Shown: positions 6,717 through 52,800 of the stretch, one piece after another
How the letters are laid out: each line of letters begins with the position of its first letter
Position numbering within the stretch: the stretch's first letter is position 1
NCBI GenBank assembly: GCA_016873735.1
Contig: VGWD01000004.1
Location: forward strand, 29,798-93,797
DNA length: 64,000 nucleotides
Source: Ignavibacteria bacterium
GTDB lineage: Bacteria; Bacteroidota; Ignavibacteria; Kapaibacteriales; UBA961
Reading direction: 5' to 3'
Notes under the pieces: generated by a model
Told to the model about the DNA's origin: nothing
Seen by the model: the letters and a program-made list of their open reading frames with translations, nothing else
Databases searched by the model: none
Position numbers and translations under genes: made by a program

Positions 6717-6757
6717 GTGTAACTCCGTTAGATGATACATTAAAAATTATTATTTAT

Positions 6758-10609: not shown

Positions 10610-10632
10610 TGTTGTCTCCATTATTGTACTCA

Positions 10633-10661: not shown

Positions 10662-10672
10662 AAGTATTAAAC

Positions 10673-17791: not shown

Positions 17792-17890
17792 AATACCTCC
17801 GTTTGTTAAATAATACTTTAAAACTGTATTGTATTTGTCATTTTTTGTCATAATTCAATCGTATAGACACTAATATCAGGTTAATTTAAA

Positions 17891-30097: not shown

Positions 30098-30142
30098 AAT
30101 GATAATTTGAATGAGTGAAAAAACACAGAACAATAATATTTA

Positions 30143-30190: not shown

Positions 30191-31621
30191 TTAAAGCTCA
30201 CCTCGCCTTTTTACGAGTTCTGCTTTTATATTGCGGGCTTTTTCTTCATTCAAATCATAATTCCACATAACGATTATCGCTAATCCTGCAGTCAAAGACG
30301 GGATAATGATGTCTGCTAACCGTAAATTGACAATTGTTTCAGGGGTTTGGATAGCAGCTCCGCCTTCAAATCCTATTACTTTCAACACCAAACCACCCAA
30401 TACCAAAGCCAAACCTTGACCTAGTTTTACCATCCACCAATAAATTGCCCCGAATGTGCCCTCTTTTCTGGGCATACCATTATGTAATTCATCTAGGTCG
30501 CAGACATCAGCTGTCATAGACATCATCAGGGTGAACAGTCCTCCAAGACCAAAGGAGAGAAATGGTATAGGTAAGAACATCAGCCATAGATTATCAGGAT
30601 TGAATCCCCACCATTTGAGAACATATCCAATAATAGATATTCCAGTCGAAAGTATAAATGCTGTTCGTTTTCCCCATTTATGGGACATCCACGTAATGAT
30701 AGGTATAATCAAAAAGGCCGTTGCCATTGCCCCAATAGTTGAAAACCAAGCAGGCCAATTGCCCGCATTTTCAAAACTTCCATTGAATAAATAATAGACG
30801 ATGATGAAGAAGCTAAATGAAGCAACCATTTGAAATCCATTAAACACAAGAAAGGTTGCCATGCATAATTTCACGAATGGAACATTCTTAAAAATCAATT
30901 TCATATTGGTCCACAACCCTTTCATGTTTCGTATGAGATTCCGTAGGGTAATGGTATCACGATTCGTTATGGCATCTTGATTTATTTCGCGACAGAATAT
31001 TGCAGGTATAATACCAAGAATCAAGCAAGATAGACCAACCCAAATCGACAGATTTCTGACAGCAATAGCCTGATTTGAATATAGATCCGGATCAGCAATC
31101 ATCACCCAGAGCCAAGGCACTATCATCCAAGCAAGTTGGCTAATTGTTTGAGAGAAACCCATGAGTCTTGTTCGCTCTTTATAATCGGAAGTCATCTCAT
31201 ATCCCAATCCAATCAAAGGTGTAGAATAGATTGTGTTACCTGTTAAAAAGAGCAAAGAGAAAACCATGAAGTACCAAAAGTTATAGGATTGGGAATTATC
31301 TGCATATAACTGCCATAAACAGGCAAACAATAACCCGCTTGTGATTGCTCCGATAAAGATATATGGTCGCCTTCTTCCCCATCTTGAGGTTGTATTATCT
31401 GAGATATATCCCATGATGGGATCTGTTATAGCATCATATATTCTGGGTATACCACCTAAAAGCCCTGCCAAAAATGGATCCATTCCAAAAGTGGTCATTA
31501 AGAAAAAGGAAAAGACACCCAAGGCGCCGGGAAACAAATTGTTGACCAAATGTCCGGAACCAAATGCTGCCTTTTGAATGATTGGGATACGAGTCAATTT
31601 TTGTACTTCTGTCATGATCAC
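30191..31621 (-). CDS. MFS sugar transporter, GPH (MelB-like) family
   Basis: About 12 hydrophobic segments; DAITDPIMGYISDNTTSRWGRRRPYI; EMTSDYKERTRL; MTADVCD..RKEG. Confidence 0.92.
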   Translation of the reverse strand: MIMTEVQKLTRIPIIQKAAFGSGHLVNNLFPGALGVFSFFLMTTFGMDPFLAGLLGGIPRIYDAITDPIMGYISDNTTSRWGRRRPYIFIGAITSGLLFACLWQLYADNSQSYNFWYFMVFSLLFLTGNTIYSTPLIGLGYEMTSDYKERTRLMGFSQTISQLAWMIVPWLWVMIADPDLYSNQAIAVRNLSIWVGLSCLILGIIPAIFCREINQDAITNRDTITLRNLIRNMKGLWTNMKLIFKNVPFVKLCMATFLVFNGFQMVASFSFFIIVYYLFNGSFENAGNWPAWFSTIGAMATAFLIIPIITWMSHKWGKRTAFILSTGISIIGYVLKWWGFNPDNLWLMFLPIPFLSFGLGGLFTLMMSMTADVCDLDELHNGMPRKEGTFGAIYWWMVKLGQGLALVLGGLVLKVIGFEGGAAIQTPETIVNLRLADIIIPSLTAGLAIIVMWNYDLNEEKARNIKAELVKRRGEL

Positions 31622-31623: not shown

Positions 31624-33144
31624 TTAAGGATGGGTAAAGAGAATTGTTTGTAAGGCTTGTTTGCTGATATCCACATATACAGTTGTAGAATTCACTGACA
31701 CTTGGAGCGAATGTTCCGAATTCGATGGATTGAATGCAATCACTACAATGGATCCATCAGGATTTTCTGCAGCCACAACCATGATATCTTTATTGGAGCA
31801 AGTATTTTTAATGATATAAGAACCGGGTCTTATATACTTGCTAAAATGCGACATGATATAATACAGTGGGGTAAAATATACCTCATCTTTTTTTGTATCA
31901 ACAATCACCGGCGCGATACACCAATTCTTGAACCAATTTGGTCCGCCATGCGTATCAAGAACCATATTCCAATCTATCCAGCCATGCACATTGTTTTGCA
32001 AACAACCAATGATATCTCGAGCATATCTATATGCAGGTACATATTTTGGATGCAGATGCTTTTGATCTGCCGGCGCCCAATCCCAACCCCAATCTGTTGC
32101 TTCTTCTCTCCAATACCAAGCATCATCATTCCAATGTGGAACTTCGGCATCAATACATGCCTCTGTTTGTATCAGATATTTAGTGGGTGCTTTTGCAATT
32201 GCATACTGCAATTCTTCCGGAAAATACTCAACCGTGCTTTCATACCAATGAATAGCGGTACCAGCAAAGTATTTGGATGATGAAGCATTTTTGTACATCA
32301 CATCCACCCAGTCTTTGAGTCCTGCTCTATTCTGATCATATCCTAGAATATTGACATGACCTAATCCTTCAGCTTCCAGTGTAGGGCCAAGTTGATATTG
32401 AACAAAGTCAGTCATTTCCTGAGGAGTGAATAGCATGCTTTCCCAATTATTTCCATTACCATGTGGTTCATTGATGACAGTTATTCCCCAAATAGGAATT
32501 CCATTTTCTTCACATGCTTTGATATACTTTGCATAATACAATGCCCATGTGCTTTTGTATTGATCTAACAGCTTTCCTCCAACCCAATCATTATTATCTT
32601 TCATCCAAGGTGGGGCAGTCCAAGGAGAGGAAATCAATCTAAAACCATCGGAAGATATCTTTTGAGCGGATTTTATCATTGGAAATACATCATCAATATC
32701 CTTTTTCAATGAAAAATGTTCAAGTAAAGTATCATTTGGTACCATTGCATATGCATAATGTCCAAGCGAGAAGTCACATGAATTGATATGCGTTCTTGTG
32801 AGTGAATATCTAGCACCTTCATCTGAAAAGTATGCTCTCATTATTCTTTCTCTTTGCGTTTCACTCATTGATTTCAACAATGAAGCAGATGCTTCCGTGA
32901 ATGATCCACCAAAACCAAGAATGTTTTGAAATCTCTTCTGTGGGTTAATGCTGATTGAAACATCGTGAGATTTCTGAGATGATTGTGCAATATTTCTCAA
33001 TGCATTGCCGGATGCAGATGTTTCAAAAATGTGCACAATGTATTTTGAATTTGTATTTGCACACATTGACATTGAAATAGGGTAAATAAAGTAGATAATT
33101 ACAAGAGGGACAATTCTACACAGAGATATAATTGGAGCTTTCAT
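31624..33144 (-). CDS. Glycoside hydrolase family 30 (GH30_1-like beta-glucosidase/beta-1,6-glucanase)
   Basis: QNILGFGGSFT, RTHINSCDFS, SPWTAPPWMK, acid/base INEP, nucleophile QTEAC, WIDWNMVLD.GGPN, HFSKYIRPG. Confidence 0.92.
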   Translation of the reverse strand: MKAPIISLCRIVPLVIIYFIYPISMSMCANTNSKYIVHIFETSASGNALRNIAQSSQKSHDVSISINPQKRFQNILGFGGSFTEASASLLKSMSETQRERIMRAYFSDEGARYSLTRTHINSCDFSLGHYAYAMVPNDTLLEHFSLKKDIDDVFPMIKSAQKISSDGFRLISSPWTAPPWMKDNNDWVGGKLLDQYKSTWALYYAKYIKACEENGIPIWGITVINEPHGNGNNWESMLFTPQEMTDFVQYQLGPTLEAEGLGHVNILGYDQNRAGLKDWVDVMYKNASSSKYFAGTAIHWYESTVEYFPEELQYAIAKAPTKYLIQTEACIDAEVPHWNDDAWYWREEATDWGWDWAPADQKHLHPKYVPAYRYARDIIGCLQNNVHGWIDWNMVLDTHGGPNWFKNWCIAPVIVDTKKDEVYFTPLYYIMSHFSKYIRPGSYIIKNTCSNKDIMVVAAENPDGSIVVIAFNPSNSEHSLQVSVNSTTVYVDISKQALQTILFTHP

Positions 33145-36100
33145 TCACTTATACCCGATGAATCTATTGTCACATGTACTAGCCTGATCTGACCATCTCT
33201 GGAAAAAATGCTCTTGCTTTGAGTAATGTTCAAAAACATATGTTTTGATACTTCAATCGAATCATCGTACATGACAATCTTGACTTCATTTCTTTTACCA
33301 AACGAATATATAATTGGAGTTTGACAAATGGTGAAGAATAGGGAACCGGATGAAATCTGTACTCTTCTTTGTACACCATGAACATCCGTACACATGATAT
33401 CTTGATCTGAATTGACAACATCATTCTCAGTAATCATGCTTGGTACAAAATGTATAGATCCATTTGAATAGTATACTCCCAATTCTCTCATCCTGCAAAT
33501 CACATCTTCTTTCACTTGCCCTGTCATACCTGGTTGTTGCGCGCCTTTTCCTAATGGTGTATGAGAATATGGATCAGTCGGAAATGCTCCATAATTCAAT
33601 GGAGACTTATGAACACCGATGCCTTCACATATTTGAACATAATGATGTCGAAGTCTATAAATGACTTCTCTGTTCGCATTATCAGCAATTGCTGCTGCAT
33701 GAATTTCTTGTACAGCATATCTCAACTTAGAAACCATATGCCAATAAATCGAACCTATTCCTTCATAAGCAAAGAATGCTCCGGATCTCCCAGTAAATTG
33801 TTTGTGATGAAACACAGATTCATACAATTCTATAAGATACATTTCTTCGGATCGTAAAAGCTGATGATACTGTTCCTCAAGGGCATACAAAGCTATTTGA
33901 AACTCTCGCACATTTGTCAATTCACCTGCAAAATGATATTCTCCATGTTTATCTTTTTGGATAATATCATCATTACCATTCACGAGTAATCTGAGCAATA
34001 AAGGTGAAGATTCAACTTTTTCTTTAGGGACACTATTCTTTTCTAAAAATTTCGGAAGTGTTTTTATCGGATATAGCATATAGCTCTGTTGATCTTCTCT
34101 GTATAATGTTCCATCTCTTAATGCGTCCAATACCTGCAAAGCTTCTTCGGGTGATATAACACCCGAACTCAATACTGCCACTTGTCCTTCAAGCATTTCC
34201 GGTAAATGTGTGATGATTGCCAAATCAGAATCCTGAGTCAACACATTATATGCTTGATACAAACCATCTTTTCTCTTATTGATTGCAATTGTTTCTCGAA
34301 GATGTTGTAAAACAGTATGTAGGAACTGTCTTAACTCATCAAATGTCAATACCGTCTTATTACATGAAAATGAATCTGAATATATATGATCACGATATGT
34401 ACTGGCATTATTACCAAGCATATCCATGATGATTTTTCTTGAGTGTTCTTTATTGATTGAATCTGTAATCCCATCTGAATTGAATATCGCAGACATAGAA
34501 ATGAAGTATTTATACAGTTCACTTGAGATTATACATTGCGTAGTAGTACTTTTTTGAAGCACCTCTTGGAAGAATTCTAAAAATCTATGTAGATAACACA
34601 GTGTGACCATTGACACACCATTTCCGACCAATGCATTGTTTGCATCATTCCATTCCGGTCTTTGCGTATTCATCCATATTCCACCACCCGGAACATAATT
34701 GGCAAGTCGAGCAAATATGGTGGCAAGCACTTTCTCAACGAAATGTACATGATGAATTTCTCCTTTCATGTTCTTTAGGAGTGCACCATCAGAACCAATC
34801 CTTTCAATTTCCTTTAAGATTTCAGCATGTTTAGCACCATCAAAGTCTATGGTACTTTTAGGGTTTTCAATGATATGTGTATATGATTTGATTGTATATG
34901 GAACATGTGCATATGCAAAGCCATCCATTTCGAGTAGAGCTTGTAATTTTTCTGGTTGTGTATCTCTCAATAATTCCAAAAGTTTTAAGAGATAGATGAT
35001 TTGATGATCTCCCCAGTATCCGATATAAGACCATGGATTATGATCTTCAATAGTTTCCCATTCAAATCCATGTTTTAAAACTCTATATGGATTATATCCA
35101 TCAAAAGTGGATGCATTCAAGAATTTACGAATCATCCCTTCAAGAAATAGTGGATATGAATGCGCCAATGCTTCCCAATTTTGAAAGATGTCACGCCAAT
35201 TCCCCTGATAGTCATACTTAAGAGAGCCATCCGGATTCTTAGTATTGATTGAGAATCTATTCCAGGGACGACTTGGGTCTCCATGTCTTCTACTAAAAGT
35301 CAATGGTAGATATTCCAAAGCGATTCTAGTGAAGTTTTGATTATTCACTCTTTCTACAAGTGCATGTAATTCATCAATGTCAAATGTATCTGCCAAACCT
35401 ATGAATGTATCATTCAAACTAGTACGCAAAGGATGGTTACAGTTATTTATATAGGATAGAAAGTCTTTTGTATTAATTGCATAATTATCTGGAAATACTC
35501 CACCGCGCATGGCATTGAAGAGAGCATTAGAATAATGTTTACTATCCGTCAGTTGATCGCCGGTGTGATGTATTCCATCAACGGACTGTACTTTTCTTTT
35601 TAGCTGAGCATTGCCCTGTTGAATGTCTTTTTCGATATGCTCAGTGATGTCTTTAATTCTGACAAGTATATCAATAATGTCTACTACTTGAGTCTGTGAT
35701 TGATGAACATCGGCAATACATTTCCATGAACATTGTTGTTGCTTTTCCACTTTTATTGAAGCCGAAACCAAATAAGCACCACGATCTCCTTTATTGTCAT
35801 GTTCGGTTTGTACTGTCAATCCATTTCGAAATGCATCCACTTGTTTTGTTGACAATAAAATAGTAGGATGATCAAATCCTACTGACCAAACTGTATTCGC
35901 AAATAATGCTTCACTTGGTTCTGCTCTATCGGTTATGCGAGCACTCAAAGCATATATTCCAAGACCCGTTTCTTGATGAAGCTCTGAATATTTATAGGCA
36001 TTGACAAGATTACTAAATGTGTTTTGCAGATCACATCCAACATCTGCGGGCATAATATCTTGCAATCCATCAAGAATTCTTACACATTGAGTCTGATCTG

Positions 36101-36584
36101 AATGATTATTCAAGGTGGAAGTCTTGATAAATCCAAAGGTATCGCTCATTGACCATTGATATGAAAAACTCATATGCACATCATGATTTATTTCCTCAAA
36201 GATTATGGAATTACCCATGGTATGTTTATACAGATTTCGTTCTATGGTGAATTGTTTACTTCGAATTGAAAACGGTTCCCAGTTATATCGTTCACCATGA
36301 AGCTCACCCTGAATGATTGTCTTGCTTCCCACATGCTCCGCTGAGTCTTTAATCTTATCTTCTGTATAATATGGGAATAGTGAATAGTCTGCATTTGTTC
36401 TACCTGCAGTCAAACCACCATTGCTAGCAATGAACATCCAATGATTTGAATCACTGACAATGCTCATAAAGAATGTAGGTATGTGATCTACATTCGAAAT
36501 TTTAAAATAAGTATCATCATCAATTTCGACTATTTCAAGACAGTCTTGGAAATCTTTGTCGATGTGTTTTATATATTCTTTCAC
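33141..36584 (-). CDS. Beta-1,3-glucan phosphorylase, GH149 family
   Basis: 1147 aa, no signal peptide; FSRRHGDPSRPWN, YQGNWRDIFQNWEAL, GYNPYR, IGYWGDHQIIY, RPEWNDANNAL, PTDPYSHTP..GAQQPGMTGQVKE; GTG start. Confidence 0.88.
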   Translation of the reverse strand: MKEYIKHIDKDFQDCLEIVEIDDDTYFKISNVDHIPTFFMSIVSDSNHWMFIASNGGLTAGRTNADYSLFPYYTEDKIKDSAEHVGSKTIIQGELHGERYNWEPFSIRSKQFTIERNLYKHTMGNSIIFEEINHDVHMSFSYQWSMSDTFGFIKTSTLNNHSDQTQCVRILDGLQDIMPADVGCDLQNTFSNLVNAYKYSELHQETGLGIYALSARITDRAEPSEALFANTVWSVGFDHPTILLSTKQVDAFRNGLTVQTEHDNKGDRGAYLVSASIKVEKQQQCSWKCIADVHQSQTQVVDIIDILVRIKDITEHIEKDIQQGNAQLKRKVQSVDGIHHTGDQLTDSKHYSNALFNAMRGGVFPDNYAINTKDFLSYINNCNHPLRTSLNDTFIGLADTFDIDELHALVERVNNQNFTRIALEYLPLTFSRRHGDPSRPWNRFSINTKNPDGSLKYDYQGNWRDIFQNWEALAHSYPLFLEGMIRKFLNASTFDGYNPYRVLKHGFEWETIEDHNPWSYIGYWGDHQIIYLLKLLELLRDTQPEKLQALLEMDGFAYAHVPYTIKSYTHIIENPKSTIDFDGAKHAEILKEIERIGSDGALLKNMKGEIHHVHFVEKVLATIFARLANYVPGGGIWMNTQRPEWNDANNALVGNGVSMVTLCYLHRFLEFFQEVLQKSTTTQCIISSELYKYFISMSAIFNSDGITDSINKEHSRKIIMDMLGNNASTYRDHIYSDSFSCNKTVLTFDELRQFLHTVLQHLRETIAINKRKDGLYQAYNVLTQDSDLAIITHLPEMLEGQVAVLSSGVISPEEALQVLDALRDGTLYREDQQSYMLYPIKTLPKFLEKNSVPKEKVESSPLLLRLLVNGNDDIIQKDKHGEYHFAGELTNVREFQIALYALEEQYHQLLRSEEMYLIELYESVFHHKQFTGRSGAFFAYEGIGSIYWHMVSKLRYAVQEIHAAAIADNANREVIYRLRHHYVQICEGIGVHKSPLNYGAFPTDPYSHTPLGKGAQQPGMTGQVKEDVICRMRELGVYYSNGSIHFVPSMITENDVVNSDQDIMCTDVHGVQRRVQISSGSLFFTICQTPIIYSFGKRNEVKIVMYDDSIEVSKHMFLNITQSKSIFSRDGQIRLVHVTIDSSGISE

Positions 36585-36627: not shown

Positions 36628-37455
36628 TTAGGATTTCTTATATACCCTCACATAGTCTATGATCATTGATTGAGGGAATGGTGTTCCTGTTGTTGGATAA
36701 CCAACATAATTTCCACCAACAGCAACATTGAGAATGATGAAGAATGGTTTATTGAATACCCATTCTCCTGTTAGGTCACTTGGCTGGATTCTTTGATACA
36801 GAAAATCATCTATGAAAAAGTCTATATAGTCTTCACCCCATTCTATTGCATATAGATGAAAGTCCGTATCAAATCTTCCTGTCAGTAATCCAAATGCTTT
36901 TGTTTTTGCATTGCCACCGAAATAACCAGGACCATGAACAGTTGCATGTGTGACTGCTGGTTCTTGACCTCTTTGCTCCATGATGTCAATCTCACCACAT
37001 TGAGGCCAGCTCACTTCAGTAATATTATCACCTAATAACCAAAATGCAGGCCATATACCTGGTCCTGTCGGCGTTTTGATTCTTGCTTCAAATCTTCCGT
37101 ATGTTTGACTGAATAAACCTTGTGTTTTGATTCTTGCAGAAGTATAACCGGAACCTGAAAATGATTCCTTTCTGGCAGTAATCACAAGTTGACCTTCACC
37201 ATTCAATTGCACATTTGTGGGTCTGTTTGTATAATATTCAAGCTCGCTATTTCCCCAACCATTATTTCCTGTACCTATATCATAAGTCCATTTCAATTTG
37301 TCCGGTGAACTAGCTGCTGCACCTTCGAAATCATCACTCCATGTCAAGGTCCAAGCTCTCTCGGGAAGTGTTTGTACAGCCTGTTCTTCACATCCTGATA
37401 AAAGCATGCTCAAAGAGATCATTGTAATAGCGAAAACTGTATAAAGTATGTTCAT
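36628..37455 (-). CDS. GH16 endo-beta-1,3-glucanase (laminarinase), lipoprotein
   Basis: Lipobox LLSGC; WSDDF, GWGNSELEYY, YTSARI, GIWPAFWLLG, catalytic GEIDIME, ILNVAVGG, IDYVRVY. Confidence 0.95.
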   Translation of the reverse strand: MNILYTVFAITMISLSMLLSGCEEQAVQTLPERAWTLTWSDDFEGAAASSPDKLKWTYDIGTGNNGWGNSELEYYTNRPTNVQLNGEGQLVITARKESFSGSGYTSARIKTQGLFSQTYGRFEARIKTPTGPGIWPAFWLLGDNITEVSWPQCGEIDIMEQRGQEPAVTHATVHGPGYFGGNAKTKAFGLLTGRFDTDFHLYAIEWGEDYIDFFIDDFLYQRIQPSDLTGEWVFNKPFFIILNVAVGGNYVGYPTTGTPFPQSMIIDYVRVYKKS

Positions 37456-37499: not shown

Positions 37500-39392
37500 T
37501 CATTTCCGGAATAAAATATTATCCAAATAGATATTTCCATTCCCAACAAATTTCAATTGGAATACATTATTCAATGCCACCGGTGTAAAAGCAGTTAATG
37601 GAATGTCAATGCTTTTCCAACCTGATCCTGTTGGCACTGCAAGCGTAAATGCTGTTTCAATTGGTCCGGGACTGATCAAAAACACTTCTAGTGAATTGGA
37701 GTTCGAGGAAAAGTAATCGAGATGAAGATAACCATACGAAGATACATTTTGATTTGAGCCGAATTGTATGCCCTGATAATTGAGTCCGGTATACAAAAGA
37801 GTTGAATTTCCATTGATCTTTGGTTGACTCACAACAGTTGTTTGACCCCAACTTGGTGACAGATTTGTACCATTTATATTTGTATATGAATCACTGAATA
37901 TGGAGATCACATCTCCTGCAGGATATGCAGGAATTGGTGCCGGTACGGTCGGTGTGGAAACAGTTTTATACATATACACATTGTCTATAAACAGATTTGA
38001 AACAGTTCCCGATAATACCAACTGCGATAAGTGTGCCTTGGTTGTCAGACCTGTAAAACTTGATAATGGTATATCCAGACTAATCCACTGATTTGATTTC
38101 AGAGTTGGAGCGGTAATTGTTATCTCATGGGAGACATCATCACCACCACCATAGACTGCATTCGCTCCAAAATCAACCAGCATCACTTTTATATTATTCG
38201 GATTTGTGGTTGGGTCTGGTGTCCATACGTCAATGTGGAAATGCGTCATTGCTGTTGCATTGATTTGATTGGCTGAGAATTCAATTCCAACAAAATTCAG
38301 ATTATAATATCGAATCACATCATCATTATTGATTTTAATAAATGAGTTATCAGTGGTGGAATATTGCCATCTGGTATTCCATGTATCAATCGGCACATTT
38401 GTATATGCATTGCTATACAATGAAATTACATTACCTGCTTCAACAGTGGGAACAGGTGCTTGATTTGTAGGTATTTGAGCCGTACCCTTTGCTGATAACT
38501 CCAATGATCCTTTTGCTTTAGTATCGCCAAGTTTTGCCGTAATGATGGAATTTCCTGAATCCAATACCTGAATAATCCCTTGATTAGATACAGTGGCAAT
38601 TGTGGTATTGGAAGATTTATATTCGAGATATGCCGGGGAAATTGCAATGGTTTGATTCACACCATTTGGGAGATTGACTATTGCTTGTGTACCTTCAATG
38701 CGAATGGTAGATCCCTTTTCTGCTGAAGGTATTTTCTTATCTTCTCCATTGTAGATGGATCCTGTGCAAATCCCTAAATCTGGAACATATTCGAATTGCA
38801 CTTCATCAATCCAAAAGGTATAGCCCTTTTCATTGATTGGTCCGGTCGAATAATAGAACAATCCTTTTTCTCCACTTAATTTCTGTGGATCAGGGATTGG
38901 GATGATCACTTTCTTCCAGTTCGTATTTACAGATAATCCATTCATTGCAACTTGATATGTTGATAAACCAAAATCATTACCAAAACCAAGCACATCAATT
39001 GTAGCTGATTGTGTTGCCTTTATATAAAATGTCAAAGCATTGAAACCTGATAAATCTCTACCTGTTCTGCTGAAATATGCACCTCCCGCATAGGCACCTT
39101 TCGGACTATTTGCATCCGGTACCTCATATTTCATTGAAGCTCTTGAATTATTATATGTTGTTTCATAGTCAACCTGAAATGCTTTTACATCGGATCCACC
39201 AAATGCTGCATAGATCAAGTCTCCCGTAAAATCATCCATGAATACTTTGCCATTCTCCGGAAATGTTGGTGCAGACAATCCATCTATACTTCTTTCATTG
39301 CAAGCAAGTAATGAACTGATGATGACAATAATTGATATGTTCAGAAAATGTCTGATAAGCGATATGTTCATATGTTTTGTACTGTATTTCAC
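37500..39392 (-). CDS. Surface glycan-binding lipoprotein (CBM-like, Big_2, 2 CBM-like repeats)
   Basis: Lipobox LLAC; RDLSGFNALTFYIKA..WKKVIIPI; Ig-like SSNTTIATVS.QG; two repeats homologous to those in 28544..30097; real start may be 39371. Confidence 0.75.
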   Translation of the reverse strand: MKYSTKHMNISLIRHFLNISIIVIISSLLACNERSIDGLSAPTFPENGKVFMDDFTGDLIYAAFGGSDVKAFQVDYETTYNNSRASMKYEVPDANSPKGAYAGGAYFSRTGRDLSGFNALTFYIKATQSATIDVLGFGNDFGLSTYQVAMNGLSVNTNWKKVIIPIPDPQKLSGEKGLFYYSTGPINEKGYTFWIDEVQFEYVPDLGICTGSIYNGEDKKIPSAEKGSTIRIEGTQAIVNLPNGVNQTIAISPAYLEYKSSNTTIATVSNQGIIQVLDSGNSIITAKLGDTKAKGSLELSAKGTAQIPTNQAPVPTVEAGNVISLYSNAYTNVPIDTWNTRWQYSTTDNSFIKINNDDVIRYYNLNFVGIEFSANQINATAMTHFHIDVWTPDPTTNPNNIKVMLVDFGANAVYGGGDDVSHEITITAPTLKSNQWISLDIPLSSFTGLTTKAHLSQLVLSGTVSNLFIDNVYMYKTVSTPTVPAPIPAYPAGDVISIFSDSYTNINGTNLSPSWGQTTVVSQPKINGNSTLLYTGLNYQGIQFGSNQNVSSYGYLHLDYFSSNSNSLEVFLISPGPIETAFTLAVPTGSGWKSIDIPLTAFTPVALNNVFQLKFVGNGNIYLDNILFRK

Positions 39393-39396: not shown

Positions 39397-42300
39397 TTAA
39401 TTTCCTAAAGACACTTGAACAAATGTTCTGATTTCCCATTCATTTCCATTTGGAAATCCAATTGCATTTGGATCTGGAACCCAATTGCCGGCAGGATCAA
39501 TTGTAAGAATTGGAGAATATCTTGGCGAGTATTTGTCCAGTGTTCTATAAGTGGTTCGTAAACCCACTCTTGTTCCGGGCAGCATGAACCAATCGGGCTT
39601 TCCAAGTTCTGTTGACAATTCGGCCATTAACTGAAGAGGAAATGTCAGGTTAAAATCACGATGATAATCGAAGGGACCCCAATCATTGAATTTACAGAAC
39701 AAAATCAATTTCGATTGTTTATAGATTGTTCGAAGATCTGCACCATATCGTTGAATTGTTCTTATATCACTTCCATTGGCTTGTCCATTACCCGCATAGA
39801 GATTCGCTATAAATCCAAGTTCAGGATTGATCTTTGAAACGATTCTAGTATTCACTTCCCATAAATCCTGTGCGGGTGCGGCACCGGGGAATACAAATGT
39901 TGTTCTTCCATTTGAAAGGATGCCGATTGCGGCATCTTGCGTGGTTGGTAAATGACGATACATGAAATCGGCACTTATTGCAAAGGATGCGTCTTCTGCT
40001 CTGTCATTATCCCATTCATACATCCATGTGGCAGGAGTTGGATCATAAGTCAATAATAATTCAGCACCAATTGTTTCCCTGTTTGATCTCACAGAAAATG
40101 GATCATCCAAAATATTTCTTGGTCTTGCAGGTGCTTGAGCCCAAGATGGAATAGGTCCTTCGAGTGGCTTTTGCCATAACATATTAGGAGCGATTTGAAG
40201 CTTACCAATATTTACAGTAAAACCGGTAAGGAAGTTCATCATATTACCACTTCCAATATCTTTCAATCTCCAACCGGTAAATGTTTTCGTATTGTCAAAT
40301 CCACCATTTGCAACCAAGCCCATATAGGATCCGAGGGCATACCAGTTGAATAGTGAACTTTCATATGTGATTTTGATTTTTCCTCCGAAATTATCAGAAG
40401 ATCGTATGGTGTCTTGATACACTGCATAATCATCAATATCTCCACGGATCAGCTGAAATGGTCTTCCATTCAGTGGTTGTCCTGCCCATAATCCACCGAG
40501 GGTGATTCCCAGATTATCAAATTTCTTCTGAATATTCAGTGAGACTTTACGCGTTTTTGGTACCGGAATAGCGAAGGAACTTTGTACATTTTCTCTTTGC
40601 GTCAAGTCTTCTTGAAATACACCTGTTATATCTGTGTTGAAGAGGGAAGTCGAGTATTTGATCAATACCGCAGGATTGGCTCCCCACCATAATTCAGGAC
40701 CAAAAGCTATCTTCAAACCTTTGATGAATTTTTTACCCTCTATTTCAAATCCAAACGGTGTATTGGCAGAATAAATGTCAATATTGGGTCCATAATTCGC
40801 CTCGGGATATAATCCAAAAAAGTCTCCTTCATACCCCCAATGAAAATGTCCGGTTCTATAAAATCCGGTCAGATTCATATATGTCGAATTCCAGGAAATA
40901 CTGCTTTTGTACAGTTGAATTCTGTCATTGACAATATTTTGCTGAGTGCCATTTGGATTCGTTATTGTGATGGTTCTTCCACGATTTTCATAAAACACTT
41001 CATCAATTGGATTCACTGCCACATTACCCAAGACATTGAATTGCACATTCGCTGTTACATTTGAAGCCGGTTTTGCAGTGATTCCTACATTGAATGATTG
41101 CATATGATCAAAACCGAGCTTTTGTGGATATGTGGGAATATTCGTGTTTTTGTTTTGACCTGTACTTAGTAAGCTTCCACCGGTGCTGAATGTGGTGAAG
41201 TTTGCTTGCATATCACTCACAAATATTGAATTTTTATATTGCTCACTTGCAGTCTTATCCGCATTAGCCATGAGCATTGACTGCGCTATATTATTTTCAT
41301 TTACTTTCGATTGTAATGAATCAGTTGACATGGCATACGGATTATAGGAATGTATGTCCTTCAATACATAATATGCAGCTCTTGGATAGAGTGTGTATAA
41401 ACCACGTTCATTTACTTTGCCTTTCGCACAAATCCCGAACCACTCTTCATTCATATTGTTTTCACCTTCCACATAGTCATTCTGATATCCGCCATTTGAC
41501 CATGAAGCATTAACATCATGCACATCTAAATTTGATGTTTGACCAAATTTCCACCATCCATCACTGAATTGAAAGGTAAAGCCACCCAAACTATTACCGG
41601 CCTTTCCATTTCCTGAGGCATTGGCATAGATTTCTTTCCAATTCCCAATAACATATTTTGCTTGCGATTCTTGATCTTCTGCATTTGTTTGCGTATTGAA
41701 TGCATCTGCACCAAACTCAGTAAACATCAGTGGTTTGCCATATTCTTTTCGCACTCTGTCAAAAGCATTGTCAAATGATATTCCACGATAAACATTGATC
41801 CCCAGCACATCCACATCCGGACATTCTTTTGCGATGATATCCAGAAACAGAAGGTCGCCATTGCACATCGCAATCGGATGTTTGGAATCTACCATTTTCA
41901 TTTCTTTTACTGCAGTATTGAAGAGCTTATACATGTGAATGGCATCCTTCGTGGATCTTCTGTCCTGCACAGGTATATTTTCAGTTTCAGCTCCTCTCCA
42001 GAATAATCCATAATTATTTTCATTACCCAAGAGAAACATCAATAATCCGGGTGTGTCTTTATATTCAGACACCATTGCTTGTACTTCTAGTAATAATATG
42101 GATTGAACTACTGAATCAGCATAATCAATATTAGGCACCCAAGTATTGTTGACTGTCAATCCATATCTGCCGAATGTATGATTTAGTACTGTAAAGATTC
42201 CGAACTTGTCATGTATATATGTGATCCATTTTGGAGGTATGCCGATATATTGTCGTATCGTATTCACGCCCATATTCTTCAATAAACCCATCTCATAATC

Positions 42301-42525
42301 AAGTGCAGCTTTTATGGTTGTTTCAGATTGATTCCATAGACTATACGAGTAATTTGTACCCGTTGGGAAATAATCCCAATTCATCCCTTTAATAAAAAAC
42401 TTTTTGCCATTCATCAAGATTGCATGCTCACCACCTATTGATTGAATCTCAATATTTTGGGTATCTGCTGTTAAGGTCGCAATTGTAATACAGAATAAAA
42501 AGCAATAGGTAGAAATTATCTTCAT
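39397..42525 (-). CDS. Clan GH-A (GH2-like) TIM-barrel hydrolase fused to a probable outer-membrane beta-barrel
   Basis: Start MKIIS; signal peptide; NGKKFFIKGM, MGVNTIR.Y, acid/base GNE, nucleophile FTEFG, F.DGWWK, EEWFG; C-terminal ~600 aa of amphipathic strands ending EWEIRTFVQVSLGN. Confidence 0.78.
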   Translation of the reverse strand: MKIISTYCFLFCITIATLTADTQNIEIQSIGGEHAILMNGKKFFIKGMNWDYFPTGTNYSYSLWNQSETTIKAALDYEMGLLKNMGVNTIRQYIGIPPKWITYIHDKFGIFTVLNHTFGRYGLTVNNTWVPNIDYADSVVQSILLLEVQAMVSEYKDTPGLLMFLLGNENNYGLFWRGAETENIPVQDRRSTKDAIHMYKLFNTAVKEMKMVDSKHPIAMCNGDLLFLDIIAKECPDVDVLGINVYRGISFDNAFDRVRKEYGKPLMFTEFGADAFNTQTNAEDQESQAKYVIGNWKEIYANASGNGKAGNSLGGFTFQFSDGWWKFGQTSNLDVHDVNASWSNGGYQNDYVEGENNMNEEWFGICAKGKVNERGLYTLYPRAAYYVLKDIHSYNPYAMSTDSLQSKVNENNIAQSMLMANADKTASEQYKNSIFVSDMQANFTTFSTGGSLLSTGQNKNTNIPTYPQKLGFDHMQSFNVGITAKPASNVTANVQFNVLGNVAVNPIDEVFYENRGRTITITNPNGTQQNIVNDRIQLYKSSISWNSTYMNLTGFYRTGHFHWGYEGDFFGLYPEANYGPNIDIYSANTPFGFEIEGKKFIKGLKIAFGPELWWGANPAVLIKYSTSLFNTDITGVFQEDLTQRENVQSSFAIPVPKTRKVSLNIQKKFDNLGITLGGLWAGQPLNGRPFQLIRGDIDDYAVYQDTIRSSDNFGGKIKITYESSLFNWYALGSYMGLVANGGFDNTKTFTGWRLKDIGSGNMMNFLTGFTVNIGKLQIAPNMLWQKPLEGPIPSWAQAPARPRNILDDPFSVRSNRETIGAELLLTYDPTPATWMYEWDNDRAEDASFAISADFMYRHLPTTQDAAIGILSNGRTTFVFPGAAPAQDLWEVNTRIVSKINPELGFIANLYAGNGQANGSDIRTIQRYGADLRTIYKQSKLILFCKFNDWGPFDYHRDFNLTFPLQLMAELSTELGKPDWFMLPGTRVGLRTTYRTLDKYSPRYSPILTIDPAGNWVPDPNAIGFPNGNEWEIRTFVQVSLGN

Positions 42526-42627
42526 AATAAGGTAATATTGATGGGGTAATGAAGGAGCTTTTAGTAAGAATTTGCTCAAATTAGCCAAAGAATGAACAAT
42601 GACCAATAGGTATTCAATGTTTTGACT

Positions 42628-44868: not shown

Positions 44869-45669
44869 GTGAAAACTTCGCTTATCATTTCAACATATAA
44901 TCGAGAAGATGCTCTTGATCTCGTTTTAAAGAGTGTAGTACATCTTAAGCAATATCCTCATGAAGTTATTATCGCTGATGATGGCTCAGGTCCAAAAACG
45001 GCAGAGCTCATTCGCAAGTATCAGAATACTTTTCCGATACCATTGATTCATTGTCATCAAGAGGACAAAGGATTCAGGCTTTCGCATATCAGAAACAAAG
45101 CAACCGCAATGTCTTCCGGAGATCATCTGATTTTCATTGATGGAGATATGATTCTACACCCTTACTTTGTGCGTGATCATCAAAGACATGCCCGCGAAGG
45201 ACTGTTCATACAGGGTTCGCGGGTATTATTGCATAAAGAGACTACCTTCTCATCGATTGAACATGGAATTCATCGCTTTTCACCATTCTCCTCAGGAATC
45301 ACCAATAGATTCAATGCAATTCGAATCCCTTTTCTTTCCCCAATAATTTCAACATGGATGAGCAAACAACATCATCATGGAGTACGAGGTTGCAATATGT
45401 CATTCATGAAGCGGGATCTTATCAAAGTCAATGGATTCAATGAAGCATTCATTGGATGGGGTCGAGAAGACAGTGAATGCGTGATACGATTATTACAGGC
45501 GGGCATTCAAAGATTCAATCTTCGTTTAGGTGGCATCGCTTATCATTTATGGCATACAGAACATATCAATTCCGAGTTATTAGAAAAAAACAATGAAGAG
45601 TTGAGACTTGCCATTGAGGAACAAAGAATATGGTGTGCTGAGGGTTTGCAAAATCATATGAGTATTTGA
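44869..45669 (+). CDS. Glycosyltransferase family 2
   Basis: SLIISTYN, IADDGS, FIDGD, GCNMS, NGFNEAFIGWGREDSE, YHLWH; GTG start. Confidence 0.92.
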   Translation: MKTSLIISTYNREDALDLVLKSVVHLKQYPHEVIIADDGSGPKTAELIRKYQNTFPIPLIHCHQEDKGFRLSHIRNKATAMSSGDHLIFIDGDMILHPYFVRDHQRHAREGLFIQGSRVLLHKETTFSSIEHGIHRFSPFSSGITNRFNAIRIPFLSPIISTWMSKQHHHGVRGCNMSFMKRDLIKVNGFNEAFIGWGREDSECVIRLLQAGIQRFNLRLGGIAYHLWHTEHINSELLEKNNEELRLAIEEQRIWCAEGLQNHMSI

Positions 45670-45670
45670 T

Positions 45671-46456
45671 ATGTTATCAAAACGATTAACATCATTGTTC
45701 TTGAGATCACTGAAGCGAGTTCCGACAATCACAATTCAATCATGGGAACATTTCAATGAAGTGGAAATTGATAGTCCTGAACAATATGAAAAGCTAGAGA
45801 TTCCAAGAAGAATCGTATGTTTTTGGACGGGTGATAATGTAATGAGTGATTCCAGAAAGCGAGCATTCGATACATTGCAATCTACATCCAAAACAGAGGT
45901 GCTTTTGATTACCCCGGAATCTCTGCCATCATATATCATTGAAACATATCCGCTTCATCCAGCATATCAATATCTTTCTTTAGTACACCGTTCAGATTAT
46001 TTACGATGTTATTTCATGCATCATTATGGTGGCGGTTATTCGGATATCAAAGCAGCTCGCCATAGTTGGGTACAAAGTTTTGATATATTTGAACAAGAGG
46101 ATTCTTCCTGGATTATGGGTTATCCGGAAATCGGAGAACACGGTGCGGCACCCGTCAAAGGTATATGTGGAGAGGATCTTCGGAAGAATTGGTATTTTCT
46201 ACTTGGAAATTGCGCTTACATTTGCGCACCATATAGTCCATTCACCACATCATGGTATAATGAAGTTCATAAAAGACTTGATGATATATTGCTTGATCTC
46301 CAAAGATGTCCCGGGAATAGTCGGGGAGACAATGATGGATATCCAATTGAATGGACATATCTATTAGGAAATATATTTCATCCTTTATGTTTGAAGTATT
46401 CAAATCATGTTTCATATGACAGAACAATCAAACCGGTCTTGGGTGGATATTTATGA
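45671..46456 (+). CDS. GT32-like / capsular polysaccharide synthesis glycosyltransferase
   Basis: IPRRIVCFWTG, HRSDYLRCYFMHHYGGGYSDIK. Confidence 0.75.
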   Translation: MLSKRLTSLFLRSLKRVPTITIQSWEHFNEVEIDSPEQYEKLEIPRRIVCFWTGDNVMSDSRKRAFDTLQSTSKTEVLLITPESLPSYIIETYPLHPAYQYLSLVHRSDYLRCYFMHHYGGGYSDIKAARHSWVQSFDIFEQEDSSWIMGYPEIGEHGAAPVKGICGEDLRKNWYFLLGNCAYICAPYSPFTTSWYNEVHKRLDDILLDLQRCPGNSRGDNDGYPIEWTYLLGNIFHPLCLKYSNHVSYDRTIKPVLGGYL

Positions 46457-47262
46457 TGAATGAAATTGTTGAACATCATACAATGCCTATTGTATCAATC
46501 ATAGTCCCATGTTATAATGCCGAGAAGTATATTCTTGAGACTTTGCAAAGTATTCAAAGCAGTGTATATCCTTCCTGGGAATGCATCATTATCAATGATG
46601 GGTCCACGGATAATTCATTGAATGTCATTAAAGAAGCGATTGATGGAAATTCCCGATTCACAATACTGAGTCAAGAGAATGCCGGTCCATCAGTAGCAAG
46701 AAATAATGGTATTCGTGCATCACATGGAACATATATTTTACCTTTGGATGCCGATGATCTGATTTCAAAGGAGTATATATCACAGGCAGTTCAGCAATTG
46801 GAACATGATGCCAAAATCAAAGTGGTCTATTCAAATGCCGAATACTTTGGCAAGAAGAAAGGTCCATGGATACTTCCCGAATACTCATTCAATGATCTCT
46901 TATTTGAGAATATGATATTCTGTTCAGCACTCTTCAGGCGAAGTGATTATGATTGTACACGAGGATATGATCCTACATTGCATGGAAGAGAAGATTGGGA
47001 TTTTTGGTTGGAACTCCTAAAAACAGGAGGTGATGTTCATAAACTGAATGGAATACATTTCTTTTATCGAACACATGAAGAATCCAGAGATAGAAAGGCA
47101 AATAGAAATCTCGAACATATACGACAGCATATTTTCAATAATCATCGTGAATTATATGCATACTGTTTTGAGAATCCAATTCAGATCTATCATGAACATG
47201 CATTTTTCAAAAAGAAGTACAATATTCTACGAAGATTAACACTGAGAAAACCCATATCATGA
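46453..47262 (+). CDS. Glycosyltransferase family 2
   Basis: VSIIVPCYN, INDGSTD, NAGPSVARN, LDADD, EDWDFW. Confidence 0.93.
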   Translation: MMNEIVEHHTMPIVSIIVPCYNAEKYILETLQSIQSSVYPSWECIIINDGSTDNSLNVIKEAIDGNSRFTILSQENAGPSVARNNGIRASHGTYILPLDADDLISKEYISQAVQQLEHDAKIKVVYSNAEYFGKKKGPWILPEYSFNDLLFENMIFCSALFRRSDYDCTRGYDPTLHGREDWDFWLELLKTGGDVHKLNGIHFFYRTHEESRDRKANRNLEHIRQHIFNNHRELYAYCFENPIQIYHEHAFFKKKYNILRRLTLRKPIS

Positions 47263-48044
47263 TTTCGATCATCATCGCCGTGTACAAGAATGTCAAAGCA
47301 TTAGACTTGATTTTACAAAGTTTATCATTGCAATCTTTTCAAGACTTTGAAGTTCTTGCCGCAGAAGATGGACAAGATGAGGCAATGCGAATGCTTATTG
47401 AACAATCACATGGATCATATCGCTTTCAAATCAAACATCTTAAGCATGAGGATAAGGGTTTTCGCAAAATCGTGATTGGAAATGAAGCCATCCGAAATGC
47501 GCAAGGAGAATATGTTATTTTTATTGATGGAGATTGCATACTTCATCCAAAATTCATTGAAGAGTATCACAAAGCGATGAAGCCGGGCTCATTTTACTTC
47601 GGGAGAAGAGTATTGCTGGGTCCTAAAACTACAAGAGATTTGTATACTAAGTCAAGATTTTCAATCCCTTCAACCCTTTCACTATTACTTTCTGATTCCA
47701 CACAAGTGCGCGAAGCATTGTATTTGCCATTCTTATCGCCAAAAGAAAAAGTCAATAGAGAGATTTGGGGATGTAATTGGGGGGTGTATAAGCAGCATCT
47801 CATGGACATAAATGGATTTGATGAAGACTATACTTTACCTTGTTTCGGAGAAGATCTGGACATTGACTGGAGATTGGCAAATCTCGGTTTAAAGCGATAC
47901 TCGCTCAAAAACAAAGCAATTCAATATCATCTTTACCATCCACTCATTTGGGATGCTGATATTGAAGTGCAAGGTCGAACACTCTATGAACAAAAAAGAC
48001 AATGCGGTATGGTTCATTGTCTTAATGGTATCGTAAAGTTGTAA
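47259..48044 (+). CDS. Glycosyltransferase family 2
   Basis: ISIIIAVY, AEDG, FIDGD, GCNW, NGFDEDY, GEDLD, YHLYH; paralogous to 44869..45669. Confidence 0.92.
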   Translation: MISIIIAVYKNVKALDLILQSLSLQSFQDFEVLAAEDGQDEAMRMLIEQSHGSYRFQIKHLKHEDKGFRKIVIGNEAIRNAQGEYVIFIDGDCILHPKFIEEYHKAMKPGSFYFGRRVLLGPKTTRDLYTKSRFSIPSTLSLLLSDSTQVREALYLPFLSPKEKVNREIWGCNWGVYKQHLMDINGFDEDYTLPCFGEDLDIDWRLANLGLKRYSLKNKAIQYHLYHPLIWDADIEVQGRTLYEQKRQCGMVHCLNGIVKL

Positions 48045-49813: not shown

Positions 49814-52800
49814 TTACTTTGAAATAATGAAACTTGACGAAAATAGACCTTTGTCTGTCGAGACCATAATCGTATATAATCCATTAATCATAGAGGAAGC
49901 ATTTATTCGTATCGATGTTCCAAATTCTGATGCTTCAATTGTATTAACAAACTGTTGGACTGCTCCAATGCAATTATAGATATTCCATTGATGTACAATA
50001 CCAAATGATTTCGGAATATAAATCGAGAACTCACTATCCATTGATACTGGATTGGGAGTTACTATAAGTGATTGCGTAAGTAATAAGTCTCCTGTTATTG
50101 ATGCTGAACCATCAATAACAACAGTAATCATTGTATCATTGGTACAGTTATTTTTATCAGTCTCGGTAACTTTTATGTATGCATTACCGGAAGCAAAGAA
50201 ATCAACTACTATTACCGAATTATTTGGATTACTAGTAATAGCTGCATTTCCAAAAGCTTCCCATTTATACACTGAAGTCGATTGACTATTTACTTGGTAT
50301 GCTATACTTTTCTGATTTGGAAACACTTTAACTGGTCCAGAAATAACTGGAATTGGTAGCGGGACTTCATACAGAGTAAATAATTCTGACTCTCCAATAC
50401 AATCTCCAGATTTCGTTACTACCGAATACTTACCAGGGATAAATGCCAAGTATACTCTATCTGTTGCGCCTTGAATTATAACACCATCTCTCTTCCATTG
50501 ATATGTATTAGCGGAGAGTTTGCATTCCAATCCTCTACTATCACCTTTACACAAATAATTTCCACCACCAAATGATGTGATTTCTGGTTTTAATCCATTC
50601 TCAATAAGTATTGAAACTGTTGTGTCTTTTACACATCCCTGATTGTTCATTTCTGTTAATTTTATAAATCCAACTCCAATACTTCTGGCATTTATTATAA
50701 CGGAATCTCCTGTATAATTTCCTTTAATGCTTAAGTTTTGAGTTAAAACATTCCATGTATAGGTTGATCCTATTTTCTTTACCGTTTTAAATACTAGATT
50801 TTGCTGATTCTCACATGCTGTATTAGGCCCAAATATTTCAACTTTAGGAGCTTCTGTTACCTCAATTTGATACCTACCTATTGTAGAACACCCAGTAACT
50901 TTGTCAGTTACTAATACAAATATAGAATCGTAACCAATTGATTTATCCCACAATACTTTCACAGAACTACTGGTTGATCCCGAAACGATGGTTCCTCTGT
51001 CTATTCCATACCATGAATATGAATATCCTGAGACATTTTGCACTGAATACGTTTCTATAGGTCCACTGAAACATATAGTATTCGTCCCTGTGATTGTAGG
51101 ATTAGGTGCATTGTTAATATTCACGATAAATGTTGTATCCTTAAAACAACCGGTTGTGTTATCTGTTTGACGAACAGTGAGTGTATCTTTACCCATTTTT
51201 GTCCAATTAATACTCACTGTACTTCCATATATACTGTTTGTTATTTTTCCATTACTTGGGTACTGCCATTGATATGAATGGTTACTTTGGCTCACAACTG
51301 AATACTCGAATACAGAACCTACGCATACAATATTTACACCTGAGATAACAGGTTTCGGTTTAGTGGAAATATAAATAGATAATGTTGTGTCTTTAAAACA
51401 ACCTGTTAGATTATTTGTTTGTCTAACTTTTAATGTTTCAAATCCTGATGTATTGTTGTTCCAATTAATGGAAACAGTAGAGCTTGTTGTTGCAGTTGCA
51501 TAGGTTCCTTTTGTCAATGGCTGCCATTGATATGAATGATTACTTACGGATTGTACTTGATATAATAGTAAACGTTCTCCCTCACACACGATATTCTTTC
51601 CTGTAATAAAGGGGGTTGGTGACGAATTGATAGTAACATTCAAGATCGTATCTTTAAAACAACCAGTTGAGTTGTTGGTCTGTCTCATTTTTAATTGTTC
51701 AGTTCCTGTACTTCCTGTCCAATTAATAGTAACCGTACTGGATGCTGATCCCGATATGATTGTTCCGCGCAGTGGCTGATACCATTGATAACTGTGACCA
51801 CTAATTGGGGAAACACTGTATTGAATATTCGTTGCACCTTGACATACTGATGAATTTCCAGTAATAACCGGTACAGGTGACGAATTGATAGTAACATTCA
51901 AGATCGTATCTTTAAAACAGCCAGTTGAGTTGTTGGTCTGTCTCATTTTTAATTGTTCAGTTCCTGTACTTCCTGTCCAATTAATAGTAACCGTGCTGGA
52001 TGCTGATCCCGATATGATTGTTCCGCGCAGTGGCTGATACCATTGATAACTATGACCACTAATTGGGGAAACACTGTATTGAATATTCGTTGCACCTTGA
52101 CATACTGATGAATTTCCTGAAATAACCGGTACAGGTAATGGGTTAACTGTGATGTTTACTCCATTATTACTACCAGTAACATTTGGATTTGAAGATACAA
52201 CCCTGATACGATATGAACTTCCCGAATTAGTAGCTATAGGAATGATACATGTTATGCTCCCTGAATTTACCGAAGTGACAGAACCCAAAACAGTTGTTGT
52301 TGTAAATGAACCATATTGATCTGATAATTGGGCTTGGAAAACATTACCTGAATTGAATGTACCTGTAATGCTATATGATAATGTGAAAGTCTCACCTTGA
52401 CAATAATTTGTTTTTGGGGCAGAGCAAGAAATAGAATTTGTAGTTCCGCCACCACCATCTTGCCATTTTACTAAATAAGCATCCTGATTTCCAGTATAAA
52501 AATTATAGTATCCATTTTGTGCTATATTTGTACTCGAAAGGGTTGCTCCTGCATTATAAATAAAACTGGATCCATCAATAGCCAGATTAACACTTAGGTC
52601 CCAAGATGTACCACCATAATATGTCCCCCATTGACGTACACCTGAGGAATTGAATTTAACAAGAAATTCATCTTGACCTCCAGAAATTGAAGTCTGATAT
52701 CCATTGCTTGATGCTATATTGGTTGTTGAACTTGTACCGCCCCCAAAATATACATTACCGGATGGGTCACATACAACACCCCAACTTCCTTCATCTCCAT

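Follow-up and report, generated by a model that had tools for sequence, protein, structure and literature searches.

The minus strand of a 64,000-nucleotide stretch of Ignavibacteria bacterium contig VGWD01000004.1 (assembly GCA_016873735.1, positions 29,798 to 93,797; hereafter the window, meaning the whole stretch analysed) carries a gene, at window positions 39397-42525, in which a predicted glycoside hydrolase is joined to a predicted outer-membrane beta-barrel. The encoded protein is probably an enzyme-channel fusion, composed of a GH158-like retaining beta-1,3-glucanase and a plug-less barrel of about 24-26 strands that would admit laminarin fragments without TonB. The locus lacks only an outer-membrane importer, and the fusion and the adjoining lipoprotein stand at the position of SusC and SusD; the reading best supported is a channel that works passively, has no plug and keeps the glucanase tethered to it. 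The parts of the fusion gene are as follows.

39397-42525, minus strand: whole gene of the secreted glucanase-barrel fusion, 1042 amino acids, from the open reading frame and its translation; stop codon at 39397-39399
42466-42525, minus strand: signal peptide, residues 1-20, MKIISTYCFLFCITIATLTA, from hydropathy and a model helix at residues 2-18, with the cleavage site read by eye
41326-42465, minus strand: clan GH-A (beta/alpha)8 domain, GH158/GH157-like, residues 21-400, from AlphaFold, Foldseek and a profile search
42019-42021, minus strand: codon of E169 in the GNE motif (residues 167-169), predicted acid/base catalyst, invariant and aligned to the GNE of 6pal and 9oro
41716-41718, minus strand: codon of E270 in the TEFG motif (residues 269-272), predicted nucleophile, invariant and aligned to the TEWG/TEFG of 6pal and 9oro
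41227-41325, minus strand: linker, residues 401-433, with helices at 401-409 and 413-428, from DSSP assignment of the AlphaFold model
39400-41226, minus strand: predicted outer-membrane beta-barrel of about 24-26 strands, unnamed family, residues 434-1042, from AlphaFold strands, face analysis and relatives
40756-40857, minus strand: residues 557-590, GHFHWGYEGDFFGLYPE..., the loop that connects strands 5 and 6 and the most strongly conserved motif of this domain
39985-40167, minus strand: loops on either side of strand 18, residues 787-817 and 828-847, with the motifs PRN..DDPF.V..NRE and DPTPATW..WDND..EDA, from conservation

Analysis of the minus-strand reading frame 39397-42606 indicated that it is open and represents an intact, strongly conserved gene, the likely start of which is the ATG at 42525, separated by a gap of 100 nt from a photolyase gene. 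Of 8000 candidates that were scored, 5831 proved to be relatives at E<=0.001, and the best 120 listed relatives of the protein are 943-1071 amino acids long with identities of 68-93%; their current public labels are 'hypothetical' or 'GH2 TIM-barrel protein'. Averaged over 19 residues, Kyte-Doolittle hydropathy exceeds 1.6 at residues 1-21 alone, the same scan across the 1042 residues detected no membrane helix after the signal peptide, and no lipobox was seen on reading the signal peptide. Pfam returned one weak match for the whole protein (Glyco_hydro_cc, 22.2 bits) and NCBIfam returned none. The AlphaFold model of the full-length protein, built on an alignment of 52 sequences, had a mean pLDDT (predicted local distance difference test) of 85.2 and a pTM (predicted template modelling score) of 0.59.

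Foldseek comparison of the model placed GH158 structures first among the PDB entries (9p26, 6pal and 9oro, E about 1e-14), followed by GH157, and when the whole model was submitted to Foldseek and VIA-align only TIM-barrel matches spanning residues 19-426 were obtained, which carry no information on the C-terminal barrel. In searches with a profile of 15 relatives the E values were 4.3e-11 for BuGH158 (6pal), 1.8e-8 for GH158(Pro) (9oro) and 3.7e-6 for the best GH2 beta-galactosidase. Identity to the GH158/GH157 structures is about 20% and the profile match spans about 200 of the roughly 400 residues. E169 and E270 are invariant across 15 full-length relatives and align with the GH158 motifs, and the domain displays the (beta/alpha)8 fold of clan GH-A with its catalytic glutamates ending strands 4 and 7, as in GH158. 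The initial annotation, made from the letters alone, had described a GH-A barrel with both glutamates, which these alignments bear out, and had left the family to be decided between GH2, GH158 and a new one; the domain is GH158-like. In GH2 enzymes sugar-binding and immunoglobulin-like (Ig-like) domains precede the TIM barrel. The public GH2 label does not fit the fusion because its TIM barrel begins at residue 21, directly behind the signal peptide, and a GH2 architecture was accordingly rejected. Pfam Glyco_hydro_2_C, which is precomputed on many relatives, was not reported for the fusion protein at E<=0.01. We read residues 21-400 as a glucanase, probably specific for beta-1,3 linkages, of GH158 or of a sister family, and the 'GH2' listed in laminarin loci by some papers may be this protein.

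In the AlphaFold model the C-terminal 609 residues form an all-beta domain with nearly no helix, to which DSSP assigns 26 antiparallel strands; these are between 7 and 17 residues long (11 on average), and the pLDDT of most exceeds 80. Nine of the 12 connections from even to odd strands in the model are of 2-3 residues, while none of the 13 from odd to even strands is so short, their range being 6-36 residues. Turns and loops alternate in this way in outer-membrane proteins, where the turns are periplasmic and the loops external, and in that register both termini of the domain would lie at the turns. In the alignment of 52 sequences hydrophobic residues make up 70% and charged residues 7.6% of one face of the strands, each of the two classes accounts for 30% of the opposite face, and column conservation on the polar face (0.447) is slightly above that on the hydrophobic face (0.415). 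Together with the signal peptide, the long amphipathic strands and the short-turn/long-loop register are the general marks of an outer-membrane beta-barrel; the strands would close into a barrel.

Conservation reaches 0.52-0.64 in the long loops 557-590, 736-761, 787-817, 828-847 and 950-960, against 0.45 over the entire barrel, and these loops hold many invariant W, F, D and E residues, as expected of loops that line a pore or bind a ligand. In the loop 557-590 (mean column conservation 0.59, pLDDT 81-93) residues W563, G567, D568, F570, E575, D583 and P590 are nearly invariant in the 52 sequences, and we regard it as the candidate pore-lining loop, which would place it within the pore. In the region around strand 18 that includes the loops 787-817 (conservation 0.52) and 828-847 (0.64), residues P809, F810, V812, R816, E822, D828, W838 and E844 are likewise nearly invariant.

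Residues 434-1042 had no Pfam, NCBIfam or PDB sequence relative, a barrel-only profile included; this profile gave two chance matches among PDB sequences (E>=0.84), and for 13 barrel-only proteins a Pfam search as permissive as E<=10 yielded nothing meaningful. Neither a type IX secretion system (T9SS) tail nor a plug, TonB box or TonB_dep_Rec domain was matched by Pfam or NCBIfam (whole protein at E<=0.01, barrel alone at E<=10), and the Autotransporter domain of Pfam was found neither in the fusion protein nor in the barrel alone. The same scans did recognise the T9SS tail of the neighbouring protein encoded at 28544-30133 (Por_Secre_tail 1.1e-8 in Pfam, TIGR04183 at 6.6e-10). Statements of the initial annotation also bear on this domain: its alternating strands were recovered in the model, the absence of a T9SS C-terminal domain and of a TonB plug was confirmed by the scans, and its supposed richness in aromatic residues proved not to be distinctive, since F+W+Y amount to 13.2% of the C-terminal part and 13.3% of the N-terminal part.

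It may be asked whether these 600 residues are instead beta-sandwich or carbohydrate-binding module (CBM)-like domains attached to a periplasmic or secreted glucanase. An alternating hydrophobic pattern is found in sandwiches too, and the neighbouring proteins are rich in CBM-like sandwiches, but the strands of the fusion are long (up to 17 residues) and in strict turn/loop register, there is neither an internal repeat nor a CBM match in the barrel, the polar face is conserved at least as much as the greasy one, and the protein has no T9SS tail or lipobox for export or anchoring. The relatives that consist of the barrel alone, described below, carry a signal peptide and a terminal ...Y-x-F. 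A soluble C-terminal part is therefore very unlikely.

A search with the barrel alone against 1.84 billion representatives retrieved 485 proteins at E<=0.001, mostly fused forms of 1000-1100 amino acids or fragments thereof. Five complete stand-alone barrels (P0195, P0202, P0203, P0246 and P0259; 564-598 amino acids, E 2.9e-46 to 2.6e-30) were found, all with a signal peptide and with the termini ...TYKF, ...KKTF, ...TYSF or ...EYSF; such termini match the classic outer-membrane beta-signal (...Y-x-F). The gammaproteobacterial stand-alone relatives start near the first strand after the linker 401-433, and the named members of their clusters are Pseudomonadales and Oceanospirillaceae (marine Gammaproteobacteria). 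In 20 inspected relatives the C-terminal residue was F, Y or W in 14 and I or L in five; the beta-signal is clear at the level of the family only. A quick tree, rooted at the midpoint only, grouped six stand-alone sequences (the sixth a 598-residue protein without an obvious signal peptide) in one clade (SH-aLRT 98) nested among fused forms, which suggests that this clade arose by loss or splitting-off of the enzyme domain. Scanned metagenomes yielded the stand-alone barrel on only two contigs, each about 2.5 kb long. One of them, gammaproteobacterial (L082:1-2417), encodes a stand-alone barrel followed by a 558-residue lipoprotein (lipobox LLLAGC) with two CBM-like repeats, a pair that echoes the fusion and lipoprotein of the window. 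Two variants extend the fused form: in P0245 (1218 amino acids) a CBM4_9 at the N-terminus precedes the glucanase and the barrel, and P0125 (1351 amino acids) has about 350 extra N-terminal residues that start like a second glucanase domain.

Language-model look-alikes of a stand-alone barrel include Treponema Msp, a Porin_4-bearing cluster and DUF6029, which are treated as leads only. Kinship with DUF6029 (PF19494), the nearest look-alike that has a name (language-model likeness 0.94), was rejected, because hhalign of the barrel alignment against the DUF6029 protein of this genome gave a probability of 0.1. A true DUF6029 protein of 584 amino acids is encoded elsewhere in the same genome (contig C29, L084:1483-4101), where it adjoins an Omp28-family gene.

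Alternatively, the barrel might mainly anchor the protein and carry out its translocation, as autotransporters do, so that the glucanase is displayed outside and its products enter by other porins or by SusC/SusD systems elsewhere in the genome. A passenger, a 16-residue helix (413-428) and a C-terminal barrel make up the layout of type V autotransporters, and one fused variant bears CBM4_9, a module usually directed at polymers. BuGH158 has been described among cell-surface glycosidases (PMC7157763), and two SusC-like genes are present elsewhere in the genome. Yet cheap means of surface anchoring already exist in Bacteroidota, namely lipoproteins and T9SS, both used by neighbouring genes; about 600 residues and some 26 strands far exceed the 12 strands that an autotransporter needs, and no Autotransporter Pfam domain was matched. 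Moreover, long loops more conserved than the strands, together with barrel identities of 54-89%, argue for a function of the barrel's own, and the gammaproteobacterial stand-alone barrels lack any passenger. We consider display without channel function possible but unlikely.

The genomic context agrees with a channel joined to a glucanase. The fusion gene is the first of a tight operon with intergenic gaps of -4 to 57 nt, and the lipoprotein gene begins 4 nt past its stop, so that the initial annotation was right in placing it at the head of the locus, ahead of a lipoprotein and at the SusC position. The genes that follow are listed in the order of transcription.

37500-39392, minus strand: 630-residue lipoprotein (lipobox LLAC) with Ig-like and CBM-like modules, candidate glycan-binding partner, from weak CBM_11 and Big_2 matches
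36628-37455, minus strand: GH16 lipoprotein (lipobox LLSGC), probable surface endo-laminarinase, Pfam GH16 E 6.8e-25
33141-36584, minus strand: GH149 beta-1,3-glucan phosphorylase without signal peptide, cytoplasmic, NF058639 equivalog at 1580 bits against a cut-off of 1150
31624-33144, minus strand: GH30 with signal peptide, Pfam GH30 E 2.8e-75
30191-31621, minus strand: MFS_2 (major facilitator superfamily, MFS) sugar transporter of the inner membrane, Pfam MFS_2 E 1.3e-62
28544-30133, minus strand: T9SS-secreted 529-residue protein with repeats resembling the CBM-like modules of the lipoprotein, from Por_Secre_tail matches

By their predicted functions the genes of the operon fill all the roles of a laminarin locus except that of the outer-membrane importer. 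The company of GH16, GH149 and GH30 supports the view that the N-terminal domain is probably a beta-1,3-glucanase, and by analogy with FbGH30, as presented in the accessible part of PMC6246565, the GH30 enzyme probably removes beta-1,6 side chains. Sigma-70 promoter-like sites were not above chance (65 found, 68.5 expected), and terminator-like sites (16 found, 9.3 expected) marked no clear end of the operon. A complex prediction for the barrel (613 residues) with the first two domains of the lipoprotein (274 residues) gave scores of 0.21 and 0.28 against a mark of 0.32.

The contents of the operon also bear on the direction of transport. A large barrel with a periplasmic glycosidase follows the logic of several exopolysaccharide exporters, and the fusion might be the outer-membrane pore of a secretion system with a trimming enzyme, as in PgaA/PgaB, BcsC/BcsZ or AlgE/AlgL. 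The operon is, though, wholly catabolic (GH16, GH30, the GH149 phosphorylase and an MFS importer) and contains neither a gene for a synthase or polymerase nor one of the Wza/OPX type; glycosyltransferases are encoded at 44869-48044, but on the opposite strand, past the photolyase gene, and these genes do not accompany the locus in other species. Export is for these reasons an extremely improbable function.

A total of 593 matches were confirmed in contigs representing one genome per species, Flavobacterium chungnamense, Chryseobacterium aquaticum, Cloacibacterium rupense and Algoriphagus kandeliae being among the carriers, and 80 loci of other species were drawn from these for comparison; since many contigs end early, the gene counts are lower bounds. 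The gene order fusion, CBM lipoprotein, GH16, GH149, GH30, MFS recurs across the 80 loci, in which at least 71 carry the lipoprotein gene, 66 GH16, 54 GH149, 45 GH30, 37 MFS and 22 the T9SS-secreted protein. An open reading frame of at least 350 codons directly follows the fusion gene in 66 of the 80, and alignment of the lipoproteins from 39 loci revealed an invariant lipid-anchor cysteine and a conserved N-terminal domain. Only three of the 80 loci showed a SusC-like gene in the flanks that were fetched, and no SusC or SusD gene was found among the 28 nearest upstream reading frames (of 49 found) in nine loci. Regulators with Y_Y_Y and Reg_prop or GerE domains occur upstream in three of these nine loci, as membrane proteins of 936-963 amino acids (L023:6916-9723, L007:6604-9492 and L016:6914-9721) that resemble the beta-glucan regulator BguR as it appears in the accessible text of bioRxiv 10.64898/2026.01.10.698779. 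In the window the gene upstream of the fusion is that of the photolyase, with no adjacent Y_Y_Y/Reg_prop regulator.

In the mechanism that we propose, the fusion would be a Sec-exported two-domain outer-membrane protein whose short helical linker joins the glucanase to the barrel. Laminarin would be captured and nicked by surface proteins (the CBM lipoprotein, the GH16 lipoprotein and the T9SS-secreted CBM protein), and the fragments would diffuse through the barrel, the pore of which may be lined by the conserved acidic and aromatic loops. The tethered glucanase would cut them at the channel, on the periplasmic side by the usual topology rule, thereby shortening the chains for the MFS carrier and keeping the inward gradient steep. 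GH30 would take off the beta-1,6 branches, the MFS carrier would bring short oligosaccharides into the cell, and GH149 would phosphorolyse them in the cytoplasm. The barrel and lipoprotein would in this way fill the role of SusC/SusD in canonical loci with neither plug nor TonB coupling.

With respect to the side of the membrane, we lean slightly towards the periplasm, because the topology rule puts the ends of the barrel domain on the turn side. In view of the helix 413-428, which precedes the first strand, and of the CBM4_9 variant, exposure of the enzyme at the surface is still plausible, be it in a covalent 'utilisome' or in autotransporter-like display. A bolder version of the periplasmic arrangement is that long laminarin threads through the barrel into a possibly processive active site and that each cut bars diffusion back, a hydrolysis-driven ratchet by which Bacteroidota and, in split form, some marine Gammaproteobacteria would import polymer-sized glucan without TonB or other energy input. 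The idea is allowed by the processivity of GH158(Pro) reported in the accessible text of PMC13195107; we hold it to be quite improbable.

Several observations weigh against a TonB-free channel with a tethered glucanase. The protein of the window ends in ...FVQVSLGN, without an aromatic terminal residue, and the beta-signal-like end noted in the initial annotation is clear for the family only. The CBM4_9 of P0245 suggests that the enzyme end meets polymeric glucan, which fits the surface better than the periplasm. Three of the 80 loci do have SusC/SusD nearby, and the laminarin locus of Formosa agariphila, in the accessible text of bioRxiv 10.64898/2026.01.10.698779, has both SusCD and GH158; the fusion may accordingly work beside SusCD and not replace it. 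The host genome itself has two full SusC-like genes (TIGR04056) elsewhere, which could import glucan, and one SusD was detected elsewhere as well; TIGR04056 does not match the fusion gene. RNA-library contigs from two river runs show 90-99% likeness to stretches of the lipoprotein gene and of the sequence that codes for the barrel, but they are short, possibly derive from relatives or from DNA, and are no proof of transcription. Of the hydrolase-porin proposed in the initial annotation, the architecture, the plug-less beta domain with outer-membrane hallmarks and the SusC position were substantiated, while the coupling of TonB-free entry to cleavage keeps the conditional form in which we state it here.

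Comparison with known systems indicated partial likenesses only. The characterised enzymes of GH158 (BuGH158, 6pal; GH158(Pro), 9oro/9p26) and GH157 (LaGH157, 9fz9/9g5g) are stand-alone proteins of 400-530 amino acids, and none of the solved chains carries a barrel, whereas the fusion protein carries a predicted one. SusC/SusD pairs share with the fusion and its lipoprotein the place in the operon (an outer-membrane beta-protein, then a glycan-binding lipoprotein, before the enzymes) and the presumed role of moving oligosaccharides across the outer membrane. SusC, however, has a plug, a TonB box and a 22-strand TonB_dep_Rec barrel, domains of which none was matched in the fusion protein, and SusD has a fold of its own, while the lipoprotein of the window is built of Ig-like and CBM-like modules instead.

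The LamB/ScrY maltoporin family, the chitoporin ChiP and CymA are substrate-specific diffusion porins. The mode proposed for the fusion would be shared with them, namely passive, TonB-independent passage of linear oligosaccharides through a pore lined by aromatic and acidic residues, but they have no sequence or Pfam relation to the fusion barrel and have 14-18 strands against its approximately 24-26, and the fusion adds a covalent hydrolase. The esterase EstA and other type Va autotransporter enzymes resemble the fusion in that an N-terminal enzyme, a helical linker and a C-terminal outer-membrane barrel follow each other in one chain, but an autotransporter barrel is made of 12 strands and bears a Pfam signature not matched in the fusion, and the barrel family of the fusion also exists free of any passenger. 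A transporter-enzyme fusion is likewise known from Formosa B, where FbGH17B (FORMB_24740) is described, in the accessible part of PMC6246565, as an MFS-GH17 protein of the inner membrane with 12 helices and a GH17 domain. Such fusions are there proposed to couple laminarin hydrolysis to uptake and are said to be common in Flavobacteriia. In contrast to FbGH17B, the fusion of the window would reside in the outer membrane and combine a beta-barrel with a GH158-like enzyme.

The barrel domain was detected in 42 of 401 sampled Bacteroidota genomes and in 24 of 180 genera; most of these genomes carry it once, and identities are 54-89%. Within the order to which the window belongs it occurs in one other genome only of this sample, and there the match has an in-frame TGA and is split over contigs (G373). 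The distribution is patchy, with 21 of 61 genomes positive in one family and 0 of 87 in another, and identity to distant families is 54-73%; this patchiness suggests that the locus spread by lateral transfer. The host genome amounts to 2.26 Mb, and metagenome runs from lakes and other freshwaters contain its DNA.

Three other minus-strand genes of the window encode very large surface proteins. Those at 3627-6740 and 10673-17851 specify T9SS cargo proteins of 1037 and 2392 amino acids, the latter with Chlamydia-PMP-type repeats, and between them lie reading frames of 925 (7886-10663) and 372 (6758-7876) amino acids that are blank in Pfam at E<=1e-5. A 1622-residue surface protein with DUF7948, PKD and SBBP domains is encoded at 49814-54682.

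No description of the fusion or of the barrel family was found in the literature searched, which did not extend to subscription journals and supplementary tables; the barrel domain, if it is a channel, would define an outer-membrane protein family without a name and without a solved relative. Laminarin is among the largest carbon fluxes in aquatic systems, and current accounts of how Bacteroidota take it up invoke TonB-powered SusC/SusD pairs; the fusion heads a beta-glucan operon without SusCD in hundreds of species. If the barrel is a channel, predictors of polysaccharide utilisation loci that are keyed on SusC/D would miss a common uptake route and, given the MFS-GH17 fusion presented in the accessible part of PMC6246565, the enzyme-channel fusion would be a design principle at both membranes. 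If the ratchet holds as well, a second, enzyme-powered route of glycan uptake would exist beside SusCD.

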